The notes under the pieces were generated by a model that worked only from the letters and a program-made list of their open reading frames with translations, was not told where the DNA came from and did no database searches. A stretch of 30,815 bases of DNA, from UHGV virus genome UHGV-0021747; one strand, 5' to 3'. The stretch comes from a virus. The position numbers and the translations under genes were made by a program. Shown piece by piece: positions 649 to 30,778 of the stretch (its first letter is position 1; the number at the start of each line of letters is the position of its first letter).

Positions 649-1191
649 ATGAATTATCCAACTATCGTTGACGGCATTGATTTCAAAGAACTGGTTTTTA
701 TTACCAACAATGACCCTGTCACCGATTCATTTATGGTGGCGAAAGCATTTCGTAAGCGACATGACAACGTTGTGCGTGATGTAGAAAGAACTATCTCTGC
801 TTGTCCTGAAGAGTTTGATACAAAACTCAATTTTGAGGTTTGCTATAAAAACAATGAGTTACAGAATGGTAAGCCACAAAAATTCTATCGGCTACGTAAG
901 GATGGGTTGATGCTTTTGGTTATGTCCTACACCAAAAAAGAAGCAATGCGTATCAAAATTGCTTACATCAACGCATTCAACTGGATGTACGCCATGCTTC
1001 AGGTTGGTCATCGTCAATTTGAAGAAGAGAGAAATGCCGTAATGCTGGAGTACATGAAAGAGAAGGATGTTGCCAGCATGTCAGGCCGCCTGCTTAATCG
1101 CTGGGGAAAAATTAAGAAGCCTCAGCTACTGGCGAGAATTGAACGCCTTGAACAGCACGGGCAAACCGTAATCCCCGGACTCACCAATTAA
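649..1191 (+). CDS. rha: Rha-family phage regulatory protein
   Basis: 180-aa ORF whose N-terminal region (FITNNDPVTDSFMVAKAFRKRHDNVVRDVE...) resembles the Rha domain family as I recall it. Position between lysis and terminase is typical for Rha morons. Confidence 0.65.
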   Translation: MNYPTIVDGIDFKELVFITNNDPVTDSFMVAKAFRKRHDNVVRDVERTISACPEEFDTKLNFEVCYKNNELQNGKPQKFYRLRKDGLMLLVMSYTKKEAMRIKIAYINAFNWMYAMLQVGHRQFEEERNAVMLEYMKEKDVASMSGRLLNRWGKIKKPQLLARIERLEQHGQTVIPGLTN

Positions 1192-1286
1192 CGGCAGTAC
1201 AGCGAAACAACCCAAGCCAGTAAGTGGGGAAATAACACTGGCAGCCACTGAAAGATGAACCTCCTGCCTTATGGCAAAAAAGATTC

Positions 1287-1315
1287 TTTGTGGTGGCGGA
1301 CTGATGGAAAGACAT
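1287..1315. repeat. 29-bp direct repeat, copy 1 (tttgtggtggcggactgatggaaagacat)
   Basis: Exact 29-bp match with 1658..1686; seen directly in the sequence. Confidence 0.9.
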
Positions 1316-1410
1316 CGGATAGAATAAAACAGTGGCTAGGGTAGCTCCCGAAAAGCGGAATCGTCACCGCCAGCCACTGAATCTATGACGAACAACTAGA
1401 CGAGGTTGAT

Positions 1411-1653
1411 ATGAGTGAAATTGATAAAATAATAAATGGTACATGTAACTTTCAATCAATACCGCCAGGTAGTTATGTAAAACAATGTAGTGAAATAGTT
1501 AATGGTCAGCTTGTAATGTCAAATGCAGGACGCGGAGTTTCTGTGGATGAAAAAAAATCAATAAATGAAGCCCTGTTAAGCATCAATGTTTTTGACTTGT
1601 TTCGCCCATCTTGGGTTATCTTGCAAAATAGTAGCCAATTCCCACATTATTGA
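1411..1653 (+). CDS. Hypothetical protein (AT-rich moron ORF, 80 aa)
   Basis: ATG preceded by a GAGG Shine-Dalgarno. The ORF is markedly AT-rich relative to its flanks and is bracketed by the 29-bp direct repeats. No family recognised. Confidence 0.55.
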   Translation: MSEIDKIINGTCNFQSIPPGSYVKQCSEIVNGQLVMSNAGRGVSVDEKKSINEALLSINVFDLFRPSWVILQNSSQFPHY

Positions 1654-1657
1654 TAAT

Positions 1658-1686
1658 TTTGTGGTGGCGGACTGATGGAAAGACAT
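1658..1686. repeat. 29-bp direct repeat, copy 2
   Basis: Exact match with 1287..1315; starts 4 nt after the stop of the 1411..1653 ORF. Confidence 0.9.
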
Positions 1687-1723
1687 TCGCTGAATCGATG
1701 ATGAACAAGTGGAAGAGGTTGCT

Positions 1724-1894
1724 ATGGTTTCCGTGAACAAAGATCCGAAGGAAGGCGTTGAATACATCACTGGTGCTGATGGTGTGAAAAGGCCAATGGC
1801 TTATTACAAAGCGGCCGAAGAGAGGGCAAGAATGGAAAATCCCCCTAAATGCGGATCATTTTTCGACATGCTGGACCTTCCATGGAAGTTGTGA
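1724..1894 (+). CDS. Hypothetical small protein (56 aa; alternative GTG start at 1709)
   Basis: ATG with a GGAAGAGG Shine-Dalgarno. Its translation-initiation region is a diverged copy of the one in front of the 1411 ORF. Confidence 0.45.
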   Translation: MVSVNKDPKEGVEYITGADGVKRPMAYYKAAEERARMENPPKCGSFFDMLDLPWKL

Positions 1895-1904
1895 ACAACT
1901 AACA

Positions 1905-1927
1905 GGTCGCTCAGGCGGCCTTTTTTA
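1905..1927 (+). terminator. Rho-independent terminator candidate
   Basis: Hairpin ggtcgc-tcag-gcggcc (6-bp stem, one G-U) followed by ttttttatt. Confidence 0.4.
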
Positions 1928-2033
1928 TTGCCATTACAAAAGCCATTCCCTACAGAGTGGCTTTGATAATGGCTTATACCCTACACGGGATAACTTAACT
2001 GATATCCCTTTTAACGGATAAACGGAGCCAACA

Positions 2034-2276
2034 ATGGCAGAGATTATTCCCATGACTGAAGAACAGAAATTCCAGTTAGAGATTTACAAACTGGTCATGA
2101 ACCAGAACGCAGCCGCAGAAGAAGCATTTCAGTTCATTGGCACTGACGAACTGAAGCTTGAGCTATTCAAAATTCACTTCCAGTCAGGCGGCGCTAATTC
2201 AGATATCACGACCCGCACTATCGAAGCGGTGCGTAAATCGAAGGAAGCGTTAGACCTGTTCACTACCGGAGCATGA
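2034..2276 (+). CDS. Hypothetical protein (80 aa)
   Basis: ORF with a GGAG Shine-Dalgarno, co-directional with the late genes; no family recognised. Confidence 0.5.
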   Translation: MAEIIPMTEEQKFQLEIYKLVMNQNAAAEEAFQFIGTDELKLELFKIHFQSGGANSDITTRTIEAVRKSKEALDLFTTGA

Positions 2277-2277
2277 T

Positions 2278-2457
2278 GTGAGCCGCGTAATCAATTTGGG
2301 TAAGGAGAAGAAATTCCCAATTACTCAAGAGCTATACGAGAGGCTGGAAAGCGTCATCCATGATTACGATGGTGAAATCAGTTTATGCGAGGCGATTGGC
2401 ACACTCGAATTGCTGAAGCAGTCACTGATTGAAAGCGCGAAAGAGTCCTCAGCCTGA
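2278..2457 (+). CDS. Hypothetical small protein (59 aa, GTG start)
   Basis: Hand-translated ORF not in the supplied track. GTG is 1 nt after the upstream stop with GGAG about 8 nt upstream. Fills the gap before terS. Confidence 0.3.
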   Translation: MSRVINLGKEKKFPITQELYERLESVIHDYDGEISLCEAIGTLELLKQSLIESAKESSA

Positions 2458-14130: not shown

Positions 14131-16127
14131 TGGCTAAAGCATGGAAAGATGTTATCGCCTCTCCACAGTATCAGGCGTTAGCACCAGAACAAAAAGCGCA
14201 GGCTCAGGAGCAATACTTCAATGAAGTCGTGGCCCCGCAAGCCGGAGAAAATGCAGAGCAGGCTAAGCAAGCTTTCTATGCTGCCTATCCATTGCCATCT
14301 GTGCAGCAAGTGGAGACACAGCAACCAGTTGCACAGCAACAACCACAGCAAAGTGGATTTATGTCTGATCTTGGCGAAGCAGTAAAAGAGACTGGTCGCG
14401 GACTGGTGCAGGCTGGCGTGAACGTGGCAAACATACCTGCATCAGTTGCCGATGCTGTAACAAGCGCGGCGGCTTGGGCTGGCGGTAAACTCGGCATTGG
14501 CGATGGTACATATCAACCAGCGCCACGAGTAACAACGCAGGGATTAGAGCAGGACTTTGGCCTTCAGCAAGGCGCGCTGACTCCACAAACGACAGAGGGA
14601 AGGGTATTTGCTGAAGCATTGCCTTACCTCACTCCTGCTGGCGTTGAGAGAGCGGCAACACAGGCACCAACACTTGCTGGTCGAATTGCTCAGGGGGCAA
14701 CTCGCCTTCTAGCAGAAAACGCAGTTGGATCACTTGCTGCAAATAGTGCGAAAGATGATGCGGAAGCACTCGCTACCGATTTAGGTGTTGGAGTTCTGGC
14801 AGGCGGCGCTATTAACGCTGCTGGACGTGGATTAGGTGCTGCTTATCGTGGTGTTCGTGGTTCGATATCACCCGAAGCGCAACAGGCTATCAAGTTTGCA
14901 GAGCGTGAAGGCGTGCCTCTGCACACCACAGACCTGTTACAACCGACTTCCCGCATCGGTAAAATGGCGCAGACGACAGCGGAAAATATCCCTCTGGCTG
15001 GCACAAGCGGAATGAGAGCAACGCAACAGGAAGCGAGAAGCCAGTTGGTGCAGAGATTTGCTGATAAATTCGGTGAGTATGATCCAGCTGTTGTTATTGA
15101 CAGCCTTAAAGCGAAAACATCAGGAATTCGTCGTGCTGCAGGGAACCGTCTTGAGCAGGTTCAGAATGCAATGGCGGGAGTCAATATCCAGCCTGCTCGA
15201 GCAATTCAGCAGATTGATACAGAAATATCTAACCTGCAGAAGCTTGGTAAGGTCGCCGATAACGAGACTATTTCAAAACTTCAGTCCTATCGTGATGAGC
15301 TTGTTCGCAATGCTGGTCCTGATGGTCCGGTAAATCTGGATTTGAAGCAATTAAGCGACCTGCGCAGCCAGTTCAGAATGGACGTGAAGGGTGAGCGACC
15401 AGTGTTACCAAACCGTTCCGATGCTGCCATTCAGCGCGTTTACAAGGCGATGACAGACGATATCAATGGTGCCATTGGTCAGAATCTTGGCAACGATACT
15501 CTCCGTAAATATCAGCAGGCCAATGCCGTATACGCTGACGAAGCGGCGAAACTAAAGAATACCAGGCTGAAGAATGTTCTCATGAAAGGCGATCTGACGC
15601 CGGAAGTTGTCAACAACATGCTATTCAGCAAGAACAAATCGGAAATTAAGACTCTGTATAACTCAGTTGGTCGTGTTGGCAGGGCGCAAATGCGCAATGG
15701 CATCATTGGAAAGGCGATGGAGAAATCAGGTGGTTCCCCTGACCAGTTCCTTCGGCAGCTTAACATCCTGCAAAACCAGACTGGCATCACATTTAAAGGT
15801 CAGGAAGCCGCTTATCTGAAAGGATTGAAAAACTACCTGCAATCCACGCAGCAGGCTGCAAAAGCGGCAGTAACAACACCAACAGGGCAGCAAACCATCC
15901 CGTTCATTATCGGGTATGGGACGGCAATGAACCCGGCGACAACTGCCGCAGCGGTAAGCTACGGACTTCTTACTCGCGCCTATGAGAGCGAGCCATTCAG
16001 AAATGCAATGCTCCGAATGGCAAACACCCCACGCGGATCAACAGCGTTTGAGAAAGCCATGCAGCAGGCGCAAAAGGCCATTAACGCCCTGACTCAAGGT
16101 GCCAAGTCTGATGCGTTGTCAGAATAG
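14130..16127 (+). CDS. Ejection protein, P22 gp16-like
   Basis: 665-aa ORF in the conserved position, coupled to the upstream gene by an ATGA overlap. Confidence 0.75.
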   Translation: MAKAWKDVIASPQYQALAPEQKAQAQEQYFNEVVAPQAGENAEQAKQAFYAAYPLPSVQQVETQQPVAQQQPQQSGFMSDLGEAVKETGRGLVQAGVNVANIPASVADAVTSAAAWAGGKLGIGDGTYQPAPRVTTQGLEQDFGLQQGALTPQTTEGRVFAEALPYLTPAGVERAATQAPTLAGRIAQGATRLLAENAVGSLAANSAKDDAEALATDLGVGVLAGGAINAAGRGLGAAYRGVRGSISPEAQQAIKFAEREGVPLHTTDLLQPTSRIGKMAQTTAENIPLAGTSGMRATQQEARSQLVQRFADKFGEYDPAVVIDSLKAKTSGIRRAAGNRLEQVQNAMAGVNIQPARAIQQIDTEISNLQKLGKVADNETISKLQSYRDELVRNAGPDGPVNLDLKQLSDLRSQFRMDVKGERPVLPNRSDAAIQRVYKAMTDDINGAIGQNLGNDTLRKYQQANAVYADEAAKLKNTRLKNVLMKGDLTPEVVNNMLFSKNKSEIKTLYNSVGRVGRAQMRNGIIGKAMEKSGGSPDQFLRQLNILQNQTGITFKGQEAAYLKGLKNYLQSTQQAAKAAVTTPTGQQTIPFIIGYGTAMNPATTAAAVSYGLLTRAYESEPFRNAMLRMANTPRGSTAFEKAMQQAQKAINALTQGAKSDALSE

Positions 16128-16216
16128 CTTCGCAAACACCAGGAACGTGCAAAAACCAAATATGTAGAACGCAATATTCAGCATATCTCTTTGCATAAAT
16201 CCTCCGTAACTGATAG

Positions 16217-16510
16217 TTAGCTGCTGTCTTTTTTATATAGCTCTTTGAGCGTATCAAAGACAATTTTCTTTACCATATCGGATTGTTGTTCTGCCATACG
16301 CTCTGCATCGTCAATGTAAACTGATGCAGAGCTTTGTTTAGTCAATGATTCTTCAATCGCTGCAATTATCTCTGAGTTCAGCGACCTGTTATTCATCTTC
16401 GCACGCTGTTTAATTTTCGCGTGAAGTTCATGCGGAAGTCTCAAGTGAAACTGCGCCTCGTCGTATTTGCTGTACATCCTTGATGCCTCACCAGTTGGGT
16501 GGAATGGCAT
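16217..16510 (-). CDS. mnt: Mnt-like ribbon-helix-helix repressor (likely start at the internal Met, 16477)
   Basis: C-terminal half ...RSLNSEIIAAIEESL...DDAERMAEQQSDMVKKIVFDTLKELYKK matches P22 Mnt closely as recalled; the N-terminal DNA-recognition strand differs. Confidence 0.8.
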   Translation of the reverse strand: MPFHPTGEASRMYSKYDEAQFHLRLPHELHAKIKQRAKMNNRSLNSEIIAAIEESLTKQSSASVYIDDAERMAEQQSDMVKKIVFDTLKELYKKDSS

Positions 16511-16550
16511 CGTAACCTACTGGATAAATACTCAATAGTACCATTTCGGT

Positions 16551-16573
16551 ATGCAATCACATCATGGTTGCAT
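16551..16573. promoter_or_regulatory. Inverted repeat ATGCAA-N11-TTGCAT between mnt and tailspike; candidate operator
   Basis: Seen directly in the sequence; sits in the divergent mnt/tailspike intergenic region. Confidence 0.3.
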
Positions 16574-16598
16574 CATATCATTCGTCTGGAGCAATGAA

Positions 16599-17090
16599 AT
16601 GTCAGATATCACCGCAAATGTTGTGGTAAGCATGCCTTCGCAACTCTTCACTATGGCTCGTTCTTTTAAAGCCGTAGCCAATGGCAAAATTTATATCGGT
16701 AAAATTGGCACTGACCCGGTAAATCCTGAAAACCAGATTCAGGTTTATGTGGAAAACGAAGACGGTTCTCACGTTCCTGTTGCACAGCCAATCATCATTA
16801 ACGCTGGCGGGTATCCTGTATATAACGGACAGATTGCCAAATTCGTAACTGTGCAAGGCCATTCTATGGCTGTATACGATGCGTACGGTTCTCAGCAGTT
16901 CTATTTTCCGAATGTGCTGAAGTATGACCCTGACCAGTTTGAGCAAAGGTTCATGGATGAAATTAGTTCGCCAGACGGTTACAAAATAATAGGTGGGTTA
17001 GAGGTCAGGCTTTCTGTATACGATATAGCTGCTGCTGATGGTGAAAGAAATAGCGATCAGTTGAATTCTTTTTTTGCTGAGTTTAAATGA
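16599..17090 (+). CDS. Tailspike N-terminal head-binding domain, ending at an in-frame TGA
   Basis: [11 protein letters not shown]...[34 protein letters not shown]...[15 protein letters not shown]...NVLKYDPDQ matches the P22 gp9 N-terminal domain as recalled. GGAG Shine-Dalgarno 8 nt upstream of the ATG. Confidence 0.85.
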
Positions 17091-17096
17091 ACTCCA

Positions 17097-18845
17097 GTGA
17101 AAATCTACTCAACTATGCCACTGACTTTCACTATCGACAAAGAGACAACGTTATACGGAGATTTTGATCTCAGCAATTGCACGTTCAACCTGGCTGGCGG
17201 TAAGATTGTTTATGCTGATGAGAGAGACGCATCTACATACATTAAAGATTTTACACCATCAGCATATCCATTAAACGAGCTAACTTCCGCGCTAACATTT
17301 ACAGAGTCAACCACTGGATGGGATAATTCCTTAGTTAAGATGTCTGGTACTGAAATTGACTTGTACCGATTGCTTGGCAGCACTTTCACGCCAAAATACA
17401 AAGGTGAAGTTAACCTACTAACCAAAGGAAGTGATTTAGCGTATACATTTAAGAATACATACAACTCTTCACTTATCTGTACTTTATATAAGCTGCCTGT
17501 GCGAAGGACTGTCATTGTATTGCCTAAGTTATCAGGGACGTTTACTGGCACGGCTGTTGATATCAAAAGGTCTATGGTTGATGTAAGGGTTAATTATGAT
17601 AATACCTTAGGAGCAATACCCATCAACTCTGCAATTTTTGGTAGTAGTAATACATACGGTGTTAATTGGTATTTGTGCTCATCGGGGATGACACAACCTG
17701 ATTCTGAATCTCGCTACACATTGACTCTAGAGTTTACTCTGAAGCATTCTTTTTTTAGCACTGTTGTTGGGAAAGGGTGGCGTTCTATTGATGGTAATTA
17801 TAGCCGTGACACTGTGGTAAGAGATTGCACTGTTGATAGCTTCAATCTTCATTATGGATCGTCTAAGGTTTTGATAGACAATTGCAGGATAATTAATGGC
17901 GCGGCTTTTGGTACTGGCGCTTTTGATGAATCAACGCAGATTATAAACTCAGATATTGGTCCCTTTGGGATTCGCACTGACTATGGAGAGCATAAGGGGG
18001 ATTTTATTGTCAAAGGGGGTTCGGTAAGAATATCATCGGACAAAACTGGGCTTGTAGATCTCTTCACATGCAGGTGTGATAATGTTGTTTCCACTGGTAG
18101 CCCTGTTCAGCCTAGAGCATTAAATCTGCCAAAAAATGTAATTATATCTACAAATATCTACTGGCCTGACGCAGTCACACTTAACATTGTTTCATTTAAA
18201 AATAATTTTAAGACACAAAATAGCATTATTCGTGATTTCATTATGCCTGGCGTTATAGATTTCTCCGGAAGCACCTTTAATGGTAAAAATGCAAGATTTG
18301 AGTGGGCCATCTCTTACCATGATTCAACTTCCAGAGAAATATCAATAGTCAATCTGACACCTGCGAAATCAATTGTTTGTAAGGTTTTAGCTTATATTGG
18401 ATACCTGAATGAGTATGCATCATGCCTTTATGGTCTTGAGAGCAATATGGACATAACTTTCATGAACTTTACGTCTGGAATGTCTCGCAGCTATATTAGG
18501 CTGGAAGGTGGGGTGCTGCGCAGGTTTGTTGGTTACTCCGGAGGGACAACCTATATGTTAGGAAGCGTGTATTTTGATAAGTCGTTGATAGATTGGGATT
18601 CAAGCAATAACCTAGTTTCAGGACTTATGTCGGTGTCTGATTGCCTTATAGACGGAACGAGGGCCAAAGGAACATCGTCCAGTAAGCCTGTTGTAAATAC
18701 ATTCGTGCACAGATCTGCAAATAATATTTGCCATGAAATTATTGCTACAGACTCAAGGGATGTGGTTGATAAGAAGTTCGCTTTATGCAGCAGGGAAGGT
18801 GCAGCAGGCAACTTCTCTACAGGAGAAATACCTATCTCTTACTAA
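17097..18845 (+). CDS. Putative tailspike receptor-binding (beta-helix-like) module, in frame with 16599..17090 across one TGA
   Basis: Same frame as the upstream ORF; no Shine-Dalgarno before GTG 17097 or ATG 17115. AT-rich, Ser/Thr/Asn/Gly/Ile-rich composition typical of tailspike beta-helix domains. Confidence 0.55.
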   Translation: MKIYSTMPLTFTIDKETTLYGDFDLSNCTFNLAGGKIVYADERDASTYIKDFTPSAYPLNELTSALTFTESTTGWDNSLVKMSGTEIDLYRLLGSTFTPKYKGEVNLLTKGSDLAYTFKNTYNSSLICTLYKLPVRRTVIVLPKLSGTFTGTAVDIKRSMVDVRVNYDNTLGAIPINSAIFGSSNTYGVNWYLCSSGMTQPDSESRYTLTLEFTLKHSFFSTVVGKGWRSIDGNYSRDTVVRDCTVDSFNLHYGSSKVLIDNCRIINGAAFGTGAFDESTQIINSDIGPFGIRTDYGEHKGDFIVKGGSVRISSDKTGLVDLFTCRCDNVVSTGSPVQPRALNLPKNVIISTNIYWPDAVTLNIVSFKNNFKTQNSIIRDFIMPGVIDFSGSTFNGKNARFEWAISYHDSTSREISIVNLTPAKSIVCKVLAYIGYLNEYASCLYGLESNMDITFMNFTSGMSRSYIRLEGGVLRRFVGYSGGTTYMLGSVYFDKSLIDWDSSNNLVSGLMSVSDCLIDGTRAKGTSSSKPVVNTFVHRSANNICHEIIATDSRDVVDKKFALCSREGAAGNFSTGEIPISY

Positions 18846-29708: not shown

Positions 29709-30023
29709 TCAGAAGCTATTTGGATTGCTTGGCCATTGCGGCAATTTTGATTCTACTGGGGTGTGTTTGGGTTTGAGTCCGTTTAAGTAGTCAAGGCGCT
29801 CAATGGCGCATTTATACATAGCAATCTGCTCTGATGACATGTCGTCGTATGACATGCCTTTGAACTTTTTAATTATCGATTCTGCCTCATGTATAAGATG
29901 CTTCTTCCTCATGAGTTCAGCTGTATGCTTAGAGCTTACAGGAGATAACTTTGCCCATATGAAGCAGATGATTACAACAGCGACTACTATGCCGGGTATA
30001 AACATTTGCTGCTTTATCCTCAA
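29709..30023 (-). CDS. Small single-pass membrane protein (104 aa) translationally coupled to cI
   Basis: ATGA overlap with the cI stop. N-terminal hydrophobic helix IPGIVVAVVIICFIWAKL then a charged soluble domain. AT-rich; followed by the operon terminator. Confidence 0.6.
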   Translation of the reverse strand: MRIKQQMFIPGIVVAVVIICFIWAKLSPVSSKHTAELMRKKHLIHEAESIIKKFKGMSYDDMSSEQIAMYKCAIERLDYLNGLKPKHTPVESKLPQWPSNPNSF

Positions 30024-30706
30024 ACTTTTGGCAGATCGTCCTGGTCTACGTACCTGGTGTGTTTCACAATAGCTGAAACAAAATGCATTTTATCAACTTC
30101 TTCAACAGGAAGAGTGATTGGGCGGTGATCACTGTTTATGCTACTAAACTGATAATCACCGTCTCTTGTTTTGTTCATGATCTTTATCATGTTGTGACCG
30201 TCTTTGGTCCTTACAAAGACTTCATCACCTGGATGTACTGGCGTATTTGGTTCAATAACAACATATTCTCCTGACTGAATCCTTGGCCACATGCTGTCAC
30301 CCTTAACCTTCAGACCGTAAGCATCTTTATCGCCGCTGTAGATGCTTAACCAACCGGATCTGAATTCAATCATATCCACTGAGCCATCAACTCCCAAAAC
30401 GGCTTCACCAATTACCGGAACAAAACCCGCACGAACGTTACCCGCAAACTCAAGATGGTCCGTAGCTCCAGCTTTACCATCTGCAAGCATGTCCATCCAT
30501 CCGCGTGGGAGATTAAAAGATTTTTCAATTAGTTCCATCATATCGTCAGCAATGCGTTTTTTTCCGCTTTTTCCTTCCGGATACAGCATTCTGGAAACGT
30601 ATGATGGTTCCCTTTCTATTCGACGAGCCAACTCTGAGGCCTTTCCATTACAGAATCGGTCTCTTATCTCTATCAGCCTTAGTCGTCTTTGTTCGTATTT
30701 ATCCAT
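30020..30706 (-). CDS. cI: cI-type prophage repressor (N-terminal HTH plus S24 LexA-like autopeptidase domain)
   Basis: Ala-Gly cleavage-site candidate (GKAGAT), GDSMWP catalytic Ser motif and a downstream Lys (MIKIM); 228 aa. Confidence 0.9.
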   Translation of the reverse strand: MDKYEQRRLRLIEIRDRFCNGKASELARRIEREPSYVSRMLYPEGKSGKKRIADDMMELIEKSFNLPRGWMDMLADGKAGATDHLEFAGNVRAGFVPVIGEAVLGVDGSVDMIEFRSGWLSIYSGDKDAYGLKVKGDSMWPRIQSGEYVVIEPNTPVHPGDEVFVRTKDGHNMIKIMNKTRDGDYQFSSINSDHRPITLPVEEVDKMHFVSAIVKHTRYVDQDDLPKV

Positions 30707-30726: not shown

Positions 30727-30778
30727 TACCTGCCGGTAAATAACCTATGGGTATTGATTTGCTTTTTACCTACAGGTA
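30727..30778. promoter_or_regulatory. OR operators: TACCTGCCGGTA (30727..30738) and TACCTACAGGTA (30767..30778) between cI and the cro start
   Basis: Same palindrome family as OL. GGAAGGAG Shine-Dalgarno at 30799..30806 points to a rightward cro-like gene starting just past the window. Confidence 0.5.

Follow-up and report, generated by a model that had tools for sequence, protein, structure and literature searches.

What does a Mnt repressor do in a phage genome from which its classical target is missing? Papers on phage genomics have raised the question of whether a lone mnt gene is a remnant or carries a new function, and the same question is posed by the viral genome UHGV-0021747, which was analysed here as a single stretch of 30,815 nucleotides (the window). 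A mnt homologue lies in it beside the tailspike gene, and a sequence-only reading of this DNA had proposed that Mnt may now control tailspike transcription directly. The features of the locus are collected in Table 1.

Table 1. Observed and predicted features of the mnt-tailspike region, in coordinates of the window.
Feature	Position	Strand	Details
mnt coding sequence, 86 aa	16217..16477	-	Likely start; longest ORF extends to 16510
mnt ribosome-binding site GGTGAGG	16486..16492	-	Read from sequence; complementary block ATGCCT invariant across the class
Weak candidate Pant remnant ATGGCA-17-AATACT	16504..16532	+	Score 6.85; start near 16539, inside the predicted operator
Predicted mnt promoter	16509..16535	-	-35 TTGAGT (16535..16530), 15-bp spacer, -10 TACGAT (16514..16509)
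Predicted Mnt operator GTACCATTTCGGTAT	16538..16552	.	Half-sites RTACC and GGTAY; centre 16545; 17-mer 16537..16553
Inverted repeat as candidate RNA hairpin	16551..16573	+	9-bp stem with one U-G pair, 5-nt loop; ends 14 nt before GGAG
Tailspike gene, head-binding and receptor-binding part	16599..18845	+	Pfam Head_binding 2.9e-67; GGAG at 16588..16591

The longest mnt open reading frame (16217..16510, minus strand) encodes 97 aa, and its product matched the Pfam families Arc (PF03869, 8.6e-15) and Repressor_Mnt (PF11423, 3.4e-14) as well as the PDB entries 1MNT (3.2e-19, residues 6-79) and 1QEY, a tetramerisation domain (1.5e-8). An N-terminal ribbon-helix-helix DNA-binding domain (PF03869, 1MNT) and a C-terminal Mnt tetramerisation domain (PF11423, 1QEY) are both present, and on these matches the product is a homologue of P22 Mnt and a member of the Mnt family, as the sequence-only reading had maintained. 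Weak Pfam matches to the HicB and FitA-like families were attributed to the shared ribbon-helix-helix fold, and an antitoxin identity of either kind was rejected, with no adjacent toxin gene in the operon. The gene most likely starts at Met12 of the frame (16477), which gives a protein of 86 aa, because a GGTGAGG ribosome-binding site is located 8 nt upstream of the 16477 ATG, RefSeq gives 86 aa in relatives including E. coli W, the 11-codon N-terminal extension is unconserved as protein in JEP4 and closed in ST64T, and the upstream ATG is overlapped by the predicted mnt -10. The gene is divergent from the tailspike gene, and the gap between them, previously put at about 88 bp, is 88 bp when counted from the longest frame and 121 bp from the likely start. 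A separate inverted repeat, GATGCC-N18-GGCATC (16482..16511), covers both the ribosome-binding site of mnt and its predicted -10; it also occurs in ST64T-type and JEP4-type loci, has no counterpart in P22, and could be a 5' UTR hairpin or the site of another protein.

The ORF map and the annotated relatives placed mnt between the homologues of gene 16 and the tailspike gene, transcribed away from the tailspike. It therefore lies antisense within the late operon, and gene 16 is convergent with it, with no ORF between the two. A tblastn search of the window with three Arc and three Ant proteins returned only mnt itself, in agreement with the earlier statement that arc and ant are missing, and no Rfam family, that of the sar antisense RNA included, gave a match in 16100..16750 at E <= 1. 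Of the immI genes, mnt alone lies between gene 16 and the tailspike, and neither arc and ant nor a strong Pant overlapped by the operator is present; judged by its gene content, the locus is not a complete immI region (mnt-arc-sar-ant), and without Pant, arc, sar and ant the classical target of Mnt is missing. It belongs to the mnt-only "ant moron" type, which is already known: ST64T, ST104 and Para1 carry mnt plus one unknown gene only, according to Villafane et al. (PMC2629481), and the arrangement has been published for ST64T, ST104, Para1 and L with its function stated to be unknown (PMC2629481, PMC8022706). A lone mnt divergent from the tailspike was also seen here in ST64T and ST160 (Salmonella), 720R6 (E. 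coli) and Brookers (Proteus).

In the recognition strand, Q9, H11 and R13 of the window protein aligned with H6, N8 and R10 of P22 Mnt, the residues that we take to contact DNA (QFHLRL versus HFNFRM), so the strand is indeed unlike that of P22, as had been noted before. The window Mnt belongs to a separate specificity class, whose recognition strand reads DEAQFHLRL. The P22 record carries annotations for Omnt, Pant, Pmnt and Oarc, and the intergenic regions were aligned with the tailspike direction as plus. A conserved CAAT, the complement of the TTG of the Pmnt -35, directly preceded the operator in the aligned regions, which read CTCAAT-AGGTCCACGGTGGACCT in P22 (strand HFNFRM), CACAAT-AAGACCACCGTGGTCTT in ST64T (QFNLRL), CTCAAT-AGTACCATTTCGGTATG in the window (QFHLRL) and AACAAT-CGTACCGTTTCGGTATG in JEP4 (QFHLRL). 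The half-site varied together with the recognition strand across HFNFRM, QFNLRL and QFHLRL, which agrees with an established finding: the specificity of Mnt and Arc is set by a short N-terminal region (Knight and Sauer 1989, cited in PMC3413123). A partly symmetric site of about 17 bp abutting the gene's own -35, as expected of a Mnt operator, is present in the window: GTACCATTTCGGTAT lies one base from the mnt -35 TTGAGT with the same geometry as P22 Omnt, and its position is identical in five classes.

The TACC-N5-GGTA core of this site was unchanged in every intact DEAQFHLRL-class gene collected, in a survey that covered three IMG/VR leader variants, Salmonella phage VSe13, Escherichia sp. 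E1V33, Rahnella-type loci (operator GTACCTTAACGGTAC) and flank-diverged metagenome loci; one variant, ATACCATTTTGGTAT, is a perfect palindrome. Both TACC and GGTA were invariant in 10 of 11 diverged loci, and the sole broken core (TACT) belonged to a Citrobacter locus whose mnt is pseudogenised by a stop at codon 5. The symmetry of the operator is modest in the window, with four pairs per half, and rises to five in JEP4 and six in L087. In three independent leader types, and likewise in the E. coli genomes H143 and H144, homology ended directly past the operator, after GGTATGYAA, and the operator therefore travels with mnt. One copy of the site was found in the window and one in the complete Sf101 genome, and neither sequence contained a further copy at 0 mismatches. 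From these comparisons, the Mnt operator is likely to be GTACCATTTCGGTAT at 16538..16552 rather than the inverted repeat at 16551..16573.

Looser matches to the operator, with 1-2 mismatches, were located in coding regions or beside the S24 repressor gene and were taken as chance. The latter, ATAACCTATGGGTAT at 30740..30754 (two mismatches), closely precedes the gene for the S24-peptidase repressor (30020..30706, minus strand) and is probably one of the operators of that repressor itself. The JEP4-type operator 16-mer GTACCGTTTCGGTATG was also encountered in five unrelated IMG/VR contigs of 45-56 kb (L100, L107, L127, L145 and L161), twice and 515 bp apart in four of the five, within a duplicated stretch upstream of small genes; these occurrences were rejected as probably due to chance, because no ribbon-helix-helix gene was nearby.

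The sequence-only reading had instead drawn attention to the inverted repeat ATGCAA-N11-TTGCAT as a distinct intergenic element. The repeat is present where it was described, its arms reach 9 nt if one mismatch is allowed, and its location between mnt and the tailspike would suit a new Mnt operator controlling an intergenic tailspike promoter. However, when the 121-bp intergenic region was shuffled, a perfect 6-nt inverted repeat arose in 37% of shuffles and the 9-nt version in 8.7%, so a repeat of this kind is expected by chance in 9-37% of cases and is not beyond chance. It is absent beside the Mnts of JEP4, VSe13 and L093, which share the recognition strand of the window, although the L093 Mnt is 98% identical to that of the window, and in E1V33 both arms are altered (ATTCAAT/ATTGAAT) while the recognition strand is unchanged. 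The arm centres are 17 bp apart, compared with a half-site spacing of about 9-10 bp in the 17-bp operators of P22 and ST64T, and neither the consensus scan nor the matrix described below found a rightward promoter for such an operator to control. As an element the repeat stood, then, but as a Mnt operator it is very improbable.

Read as RNA, the same repeat gave a more stable hairpin in the tailspike direction (-9.0 kcal/mol in plus-strand RNA versus -6.6 in minus-strand RNA), and its single stem mismatch forms a U-G pair in plus-strand RNA only, a further point against a DNA operator. Window-type leader variants retained 99% of the hairpin pairs, and E1V33 carries a compensatory G-C to U-A change; near-identical type-a leaders contained no double changes in the stem. 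The P22-type leaders of P22, epsilon34, 611R6, ST64T, JEP4, Rahnella-type and Citrobacter loci contain a stem, CCGYAGN/N'CUGYGG, that ends 15 nt before GGAG, with compensatory double changes at two pairs and several G-C/G-U exchanges that pair only in plus-strand RNA. These hairpins (loci L004, which is P22, L005, which is ST64T, L008, L011, L002, L216 and L218-L223) are located about 20-45 nt upstream of the tailspike ATG. P22 itself has two copies, flanking an insert. No Rfam family matched the tailspike-leader hairpin. We consider it fairly probable that 16551..16573 is a tailspike-leader RNA hairpin, the positional analogue of the P22-type leader stem and not a Mnt site; its role may lie in stability, processing or a recombination boundary.

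Promoters were scored with a simple, approximate position-weight matrix built from consensus frequencies; it recovered P22 Pant at 16.7 and Pmnt at 14.3. The predicted mnt promoter of the window (TTGAGT-15-TACGAT) scored 8.5, which places it in the top 0.03% of the window background, and it is the positional homologue of P22 Pmnt (TTGAGA-17-TATCAT). Leftward sites at the Pmnt position were also found in ST64T (TTGTGG-17-TATGAT, 10.5), 720R6 (TTGAGG-17-TAAGAT, 11.7), Brookers (TTGTAA-17-TATTAT, 11.8) and JEP4 (TTGTTG-17-TACGAT, 9.2), ranking first among leftward sites in these four relatives and second in the window. Across the class there was no variation in the -10, in the TTG of the -35 or in the ribosome-binding site. 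Because its spacer is 15 bp, against 17 bp in JEP4-type loci, the window promoter could be weak or dependent on activation. Some relatives, in other hosts, have mnt at the head of a small same-strand operon with Rap1a-like, ClpP-like or lipoprotein cargo genes, which fits a promoter active in the lysogen. P22 Mnt reportedly has no direct action on Pmnt, its activation of that promoter being indirect, and autoregulation by the window Mnt, if true, would accordingly be a new property.

No Pant-like promoter facing the tailspike was found in the lone-mnt phages scored (ST64T, JEP4, 720R6, Brookers and the window). The best rightward scores were 5.8-6.9 in ST64T, JEP4, 720R6 and the window, compared with 16.7 for P22 Pant, and the best in Brookers (9.2, TTTACA-15-TACTAT) was at another position. 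The proposal of direct control of tailspike transcription by Mnt thus found no promoter to act through: the highest-scoring rightward site in the window, the weak Pant-remnant candidate, reached 6.85 against 16.7 and fell below the threshold of the consensus promoter scan. From gene 16 to the tailspike, the same scan predicted no terminator on either strand, so the tailspike gene is probably read from the late operon, as its last gene, through the antisense mnt. For gene 9 of P22, late read-through transcription is accepted.

Mnt bound at 16538..16552 might nevertheless have been co-opted to gate the tailspike, either by repressing the weak Pant remnant in the lysogen or by roadblocking late polymerases. 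The placement of the weak plus-strand site relative to the operator mirrors that of Pant and Omnt, this Mnt class was always directly upstream of the tailspike in about 55 loci, the purifying selection described below demands some function, and Villafane et al. speculate about a possible effect of Mnt and Arc on late read-through into gene 9 (PMC2629481). However, about 0.5 such plus-strand sites are expected in the region by chance, the site is unconserved in JEP4-type, Rahnella-type and ST64T-type loci, and inserted HNH genes can separate the operator from the tailspike (in L218 and L219 an HNH_3 endonuclease gene lies between mnt and the tailspike start). Antiterminated late transcription, moreover, is expected to resist roadblocks. 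Gating of the tailspike by Mnt is therefore rather unlikely.

The tailspike gene of the window is itself interrupted. An in-frame TGA at 17088..17090 (codon 164) splits it into 16599..17090 and 17097..18845, while GGA (Gly) stands at this codon both in E. coli JX21CE33, whose intact tailspike is 75% identical over 749 aa, and in the 99.66% identical IMG/VR contig L012. The TGA therefore either arose recently as a G-to-T nonsense mutation or reflects an error in sequencing. In L217 and several IMG/VR loci (e.g. L055 and L087), the tailspike has been recurrently replaced directly after ATGTCAGATATCACC, just past codon 5, by sequences of two unrelated kinds beginning TACCATGATTCTCATG and TACTCAACAGATGG, with mnt and the intergenic region intact. 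This point may be an insertion or recombination hot spot.

The pattern of selection on the gene was pronounced. Among 62 nucleotide variants of window-type mnt, pN/pS was 0.26, and for codons 1-47 (the DNA-binding half) dN/dS was 0.02-0.07 in comparison with JEP4, VSe13 and E1V33, with synonymous sites saturated. The 86-aa frame was intact in 54 of the 62 variants, some of the other eight being shorter natural forms, and the non-coding promoter and operator blocks were conserved far beyond the synonymous sites of mnt. Members of the class were found in Escherichia, Salmonella, Rahnella, Klebsiella-labelled and Citrobacter sequences; mnt with the intergenic segment was present at a coverage of at least 80% in 256 of 5,426 complete E. 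coli genomes (about 5%), and the layout gene 16, mnt, tailspike, acyltransferase recurred at 95-98% identity in the viable phages IME10 and Sf101 and in the E. coli W prophage. The DEAQFHLRL DNA-binding half was joined to several C-terminal halves (P22-like, ST64T-like and others; P0086-P0120, L218-L223 and L009), which looks like domain shuffling.

Such strong purifying selection on a widespread coliphage Mnt class indicates that the protein is functional and not a remnant. The phage L paper raises the possibility of a remnant for the mnt of ST64T and L (PMC8022706), and one Citrobacter copy is pseudogenised with a degenerate operator, but a functionless, decaying piece of immI is hardly credible for the window, given the low dN/dS, the conservation of promoter, ribosome-binding site and operator above the level of synonymous sites, and an intact frame spread over four genera. 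A function in trans would also account for selection on Mnt without a cis target: the prophage Mnt could silence the antirepressor promoter of superinfecting relatives with the same operator and so prevent induction. Prophage Mnt acts in this way on superinfecting P22, and antirepressor cross-talk between prophages is documented (PMC7380047). However, no arc or ant was found beside TACC-N5-GGTA in about 45 IMG/VR loci, three species-representative genomes, the phage collection and six metagenome or genome loci, and in Stx2 phages the Mnt/Arc/Ant module has another recognition strand and another operator, which makes immunity in trans distinctly improbable.

Taken together, the comparative data lead us to favour, with somewhat better than even confidence, a self-regulating Mnt that is left over from immI and binds 16538..16552, with the tailspike expressed by late read-through. 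A P22-type immI ("ant moron") would have lost arc, ant and the strong Pant, so that mnt, its leftward promoter and a single operator remained. The Mnt tetramer would bind 16538..16552 and set expression from its own promoter, and any rightward start at the decayed Pant remnant would, as a by-product, be blocked by the bound protein. Transcription of the tailspike, the last gene of the late operon, would come mainly from read-through, with 16551..16573 acting as a tailspike-leader RNA hairpin and not as a Mnt site. The strength of purifying selection nonetheless argues that Mnt has a target or benefit beyond this explanation. That the lone Mnt has taken on a new job tied to the tailspike, throttling its transcription in the lysogen or acting as a late roadblock, appears quite unlikely; if it were true, Mnt acting in trans could starve superinfecting relatives with the same operator of tailspike, which would be an exclusion function. 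No new kind of system is revealed by these results, and the arrangement would not surprise a P22 specialist. The selection evidence for a maintained lone Mnt is new, and the class combining DEAQFHLRL with a putative RTACC-N5-GGTAY operator was not found described in our literature search. Comparison of loci yields its probable operator, and the variation of this operator with the recognition strand extends the classic work on Mnt and Arc specificity to natural variants.

Among known systems, the Stx2-converting phages (L224, Stx2a_WGPS8, 700..2300) carry a module of Mnt-like (106 aa), Arc-like (57 aa) and antirepressor genes among their tail genes, with palindromic intergenic sites of its own, and thus an immI-like moron in a different type of phage; cross-talk with the window Mnt was rejected, as the recognition strand and operator differ. 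[quoted passage not shown] P22 Mnt itself agrees with the window protein in having a ribbon-helix-helix and a C-terminal tetramerisation domain (49% identity), in its genome position and leftward orientation, and in a single operator one base from its own -35; the two differ in recognition residues and half-site (H/N/R with GGTCCAC in P22, Q/H/R with RTACC in the window). ST64T, ST104, L and Para1 likewise have a lone mnt divergent from the tailspike, with arc and ant absent, Pmnt kept and Pant lost. Unlike the window, in which mnt stands alone with its own leader variant, they carry an extra small ORF and a P22-type tailspike leader, and the ST64T class pairs QFNLRL with AAGACCAC.GTGGTCTT (AAGACCACCGTGGTCTT), whereas the window pairs QFHLRL with GTACC...GGTAT.

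In the Sf101 records mnt (L001/L213, 14284..14577) is mislabelled, either as "partition protein ATPase" or as "chromosome segregation ATPase", the mnt product bears the name "partition protein ATPase" in the RefSeq records of epsilon34 and UAB_Phi20, the IME10 gene is unannotated, and the Sf101 paper does not discuss the mnt gene. Sf101 gp14, the unannotated IME10 ORF and WFL_RS13025 of E. coli W nevertheless represent the same module as that of the window, at 96-98% identity with the intergenic region included. Their tailspikes are intact, whereas that of the window carries the TGA, and in Sf101, IME10 and E. coli W the question of what a lone Mnt does can be tested directly.
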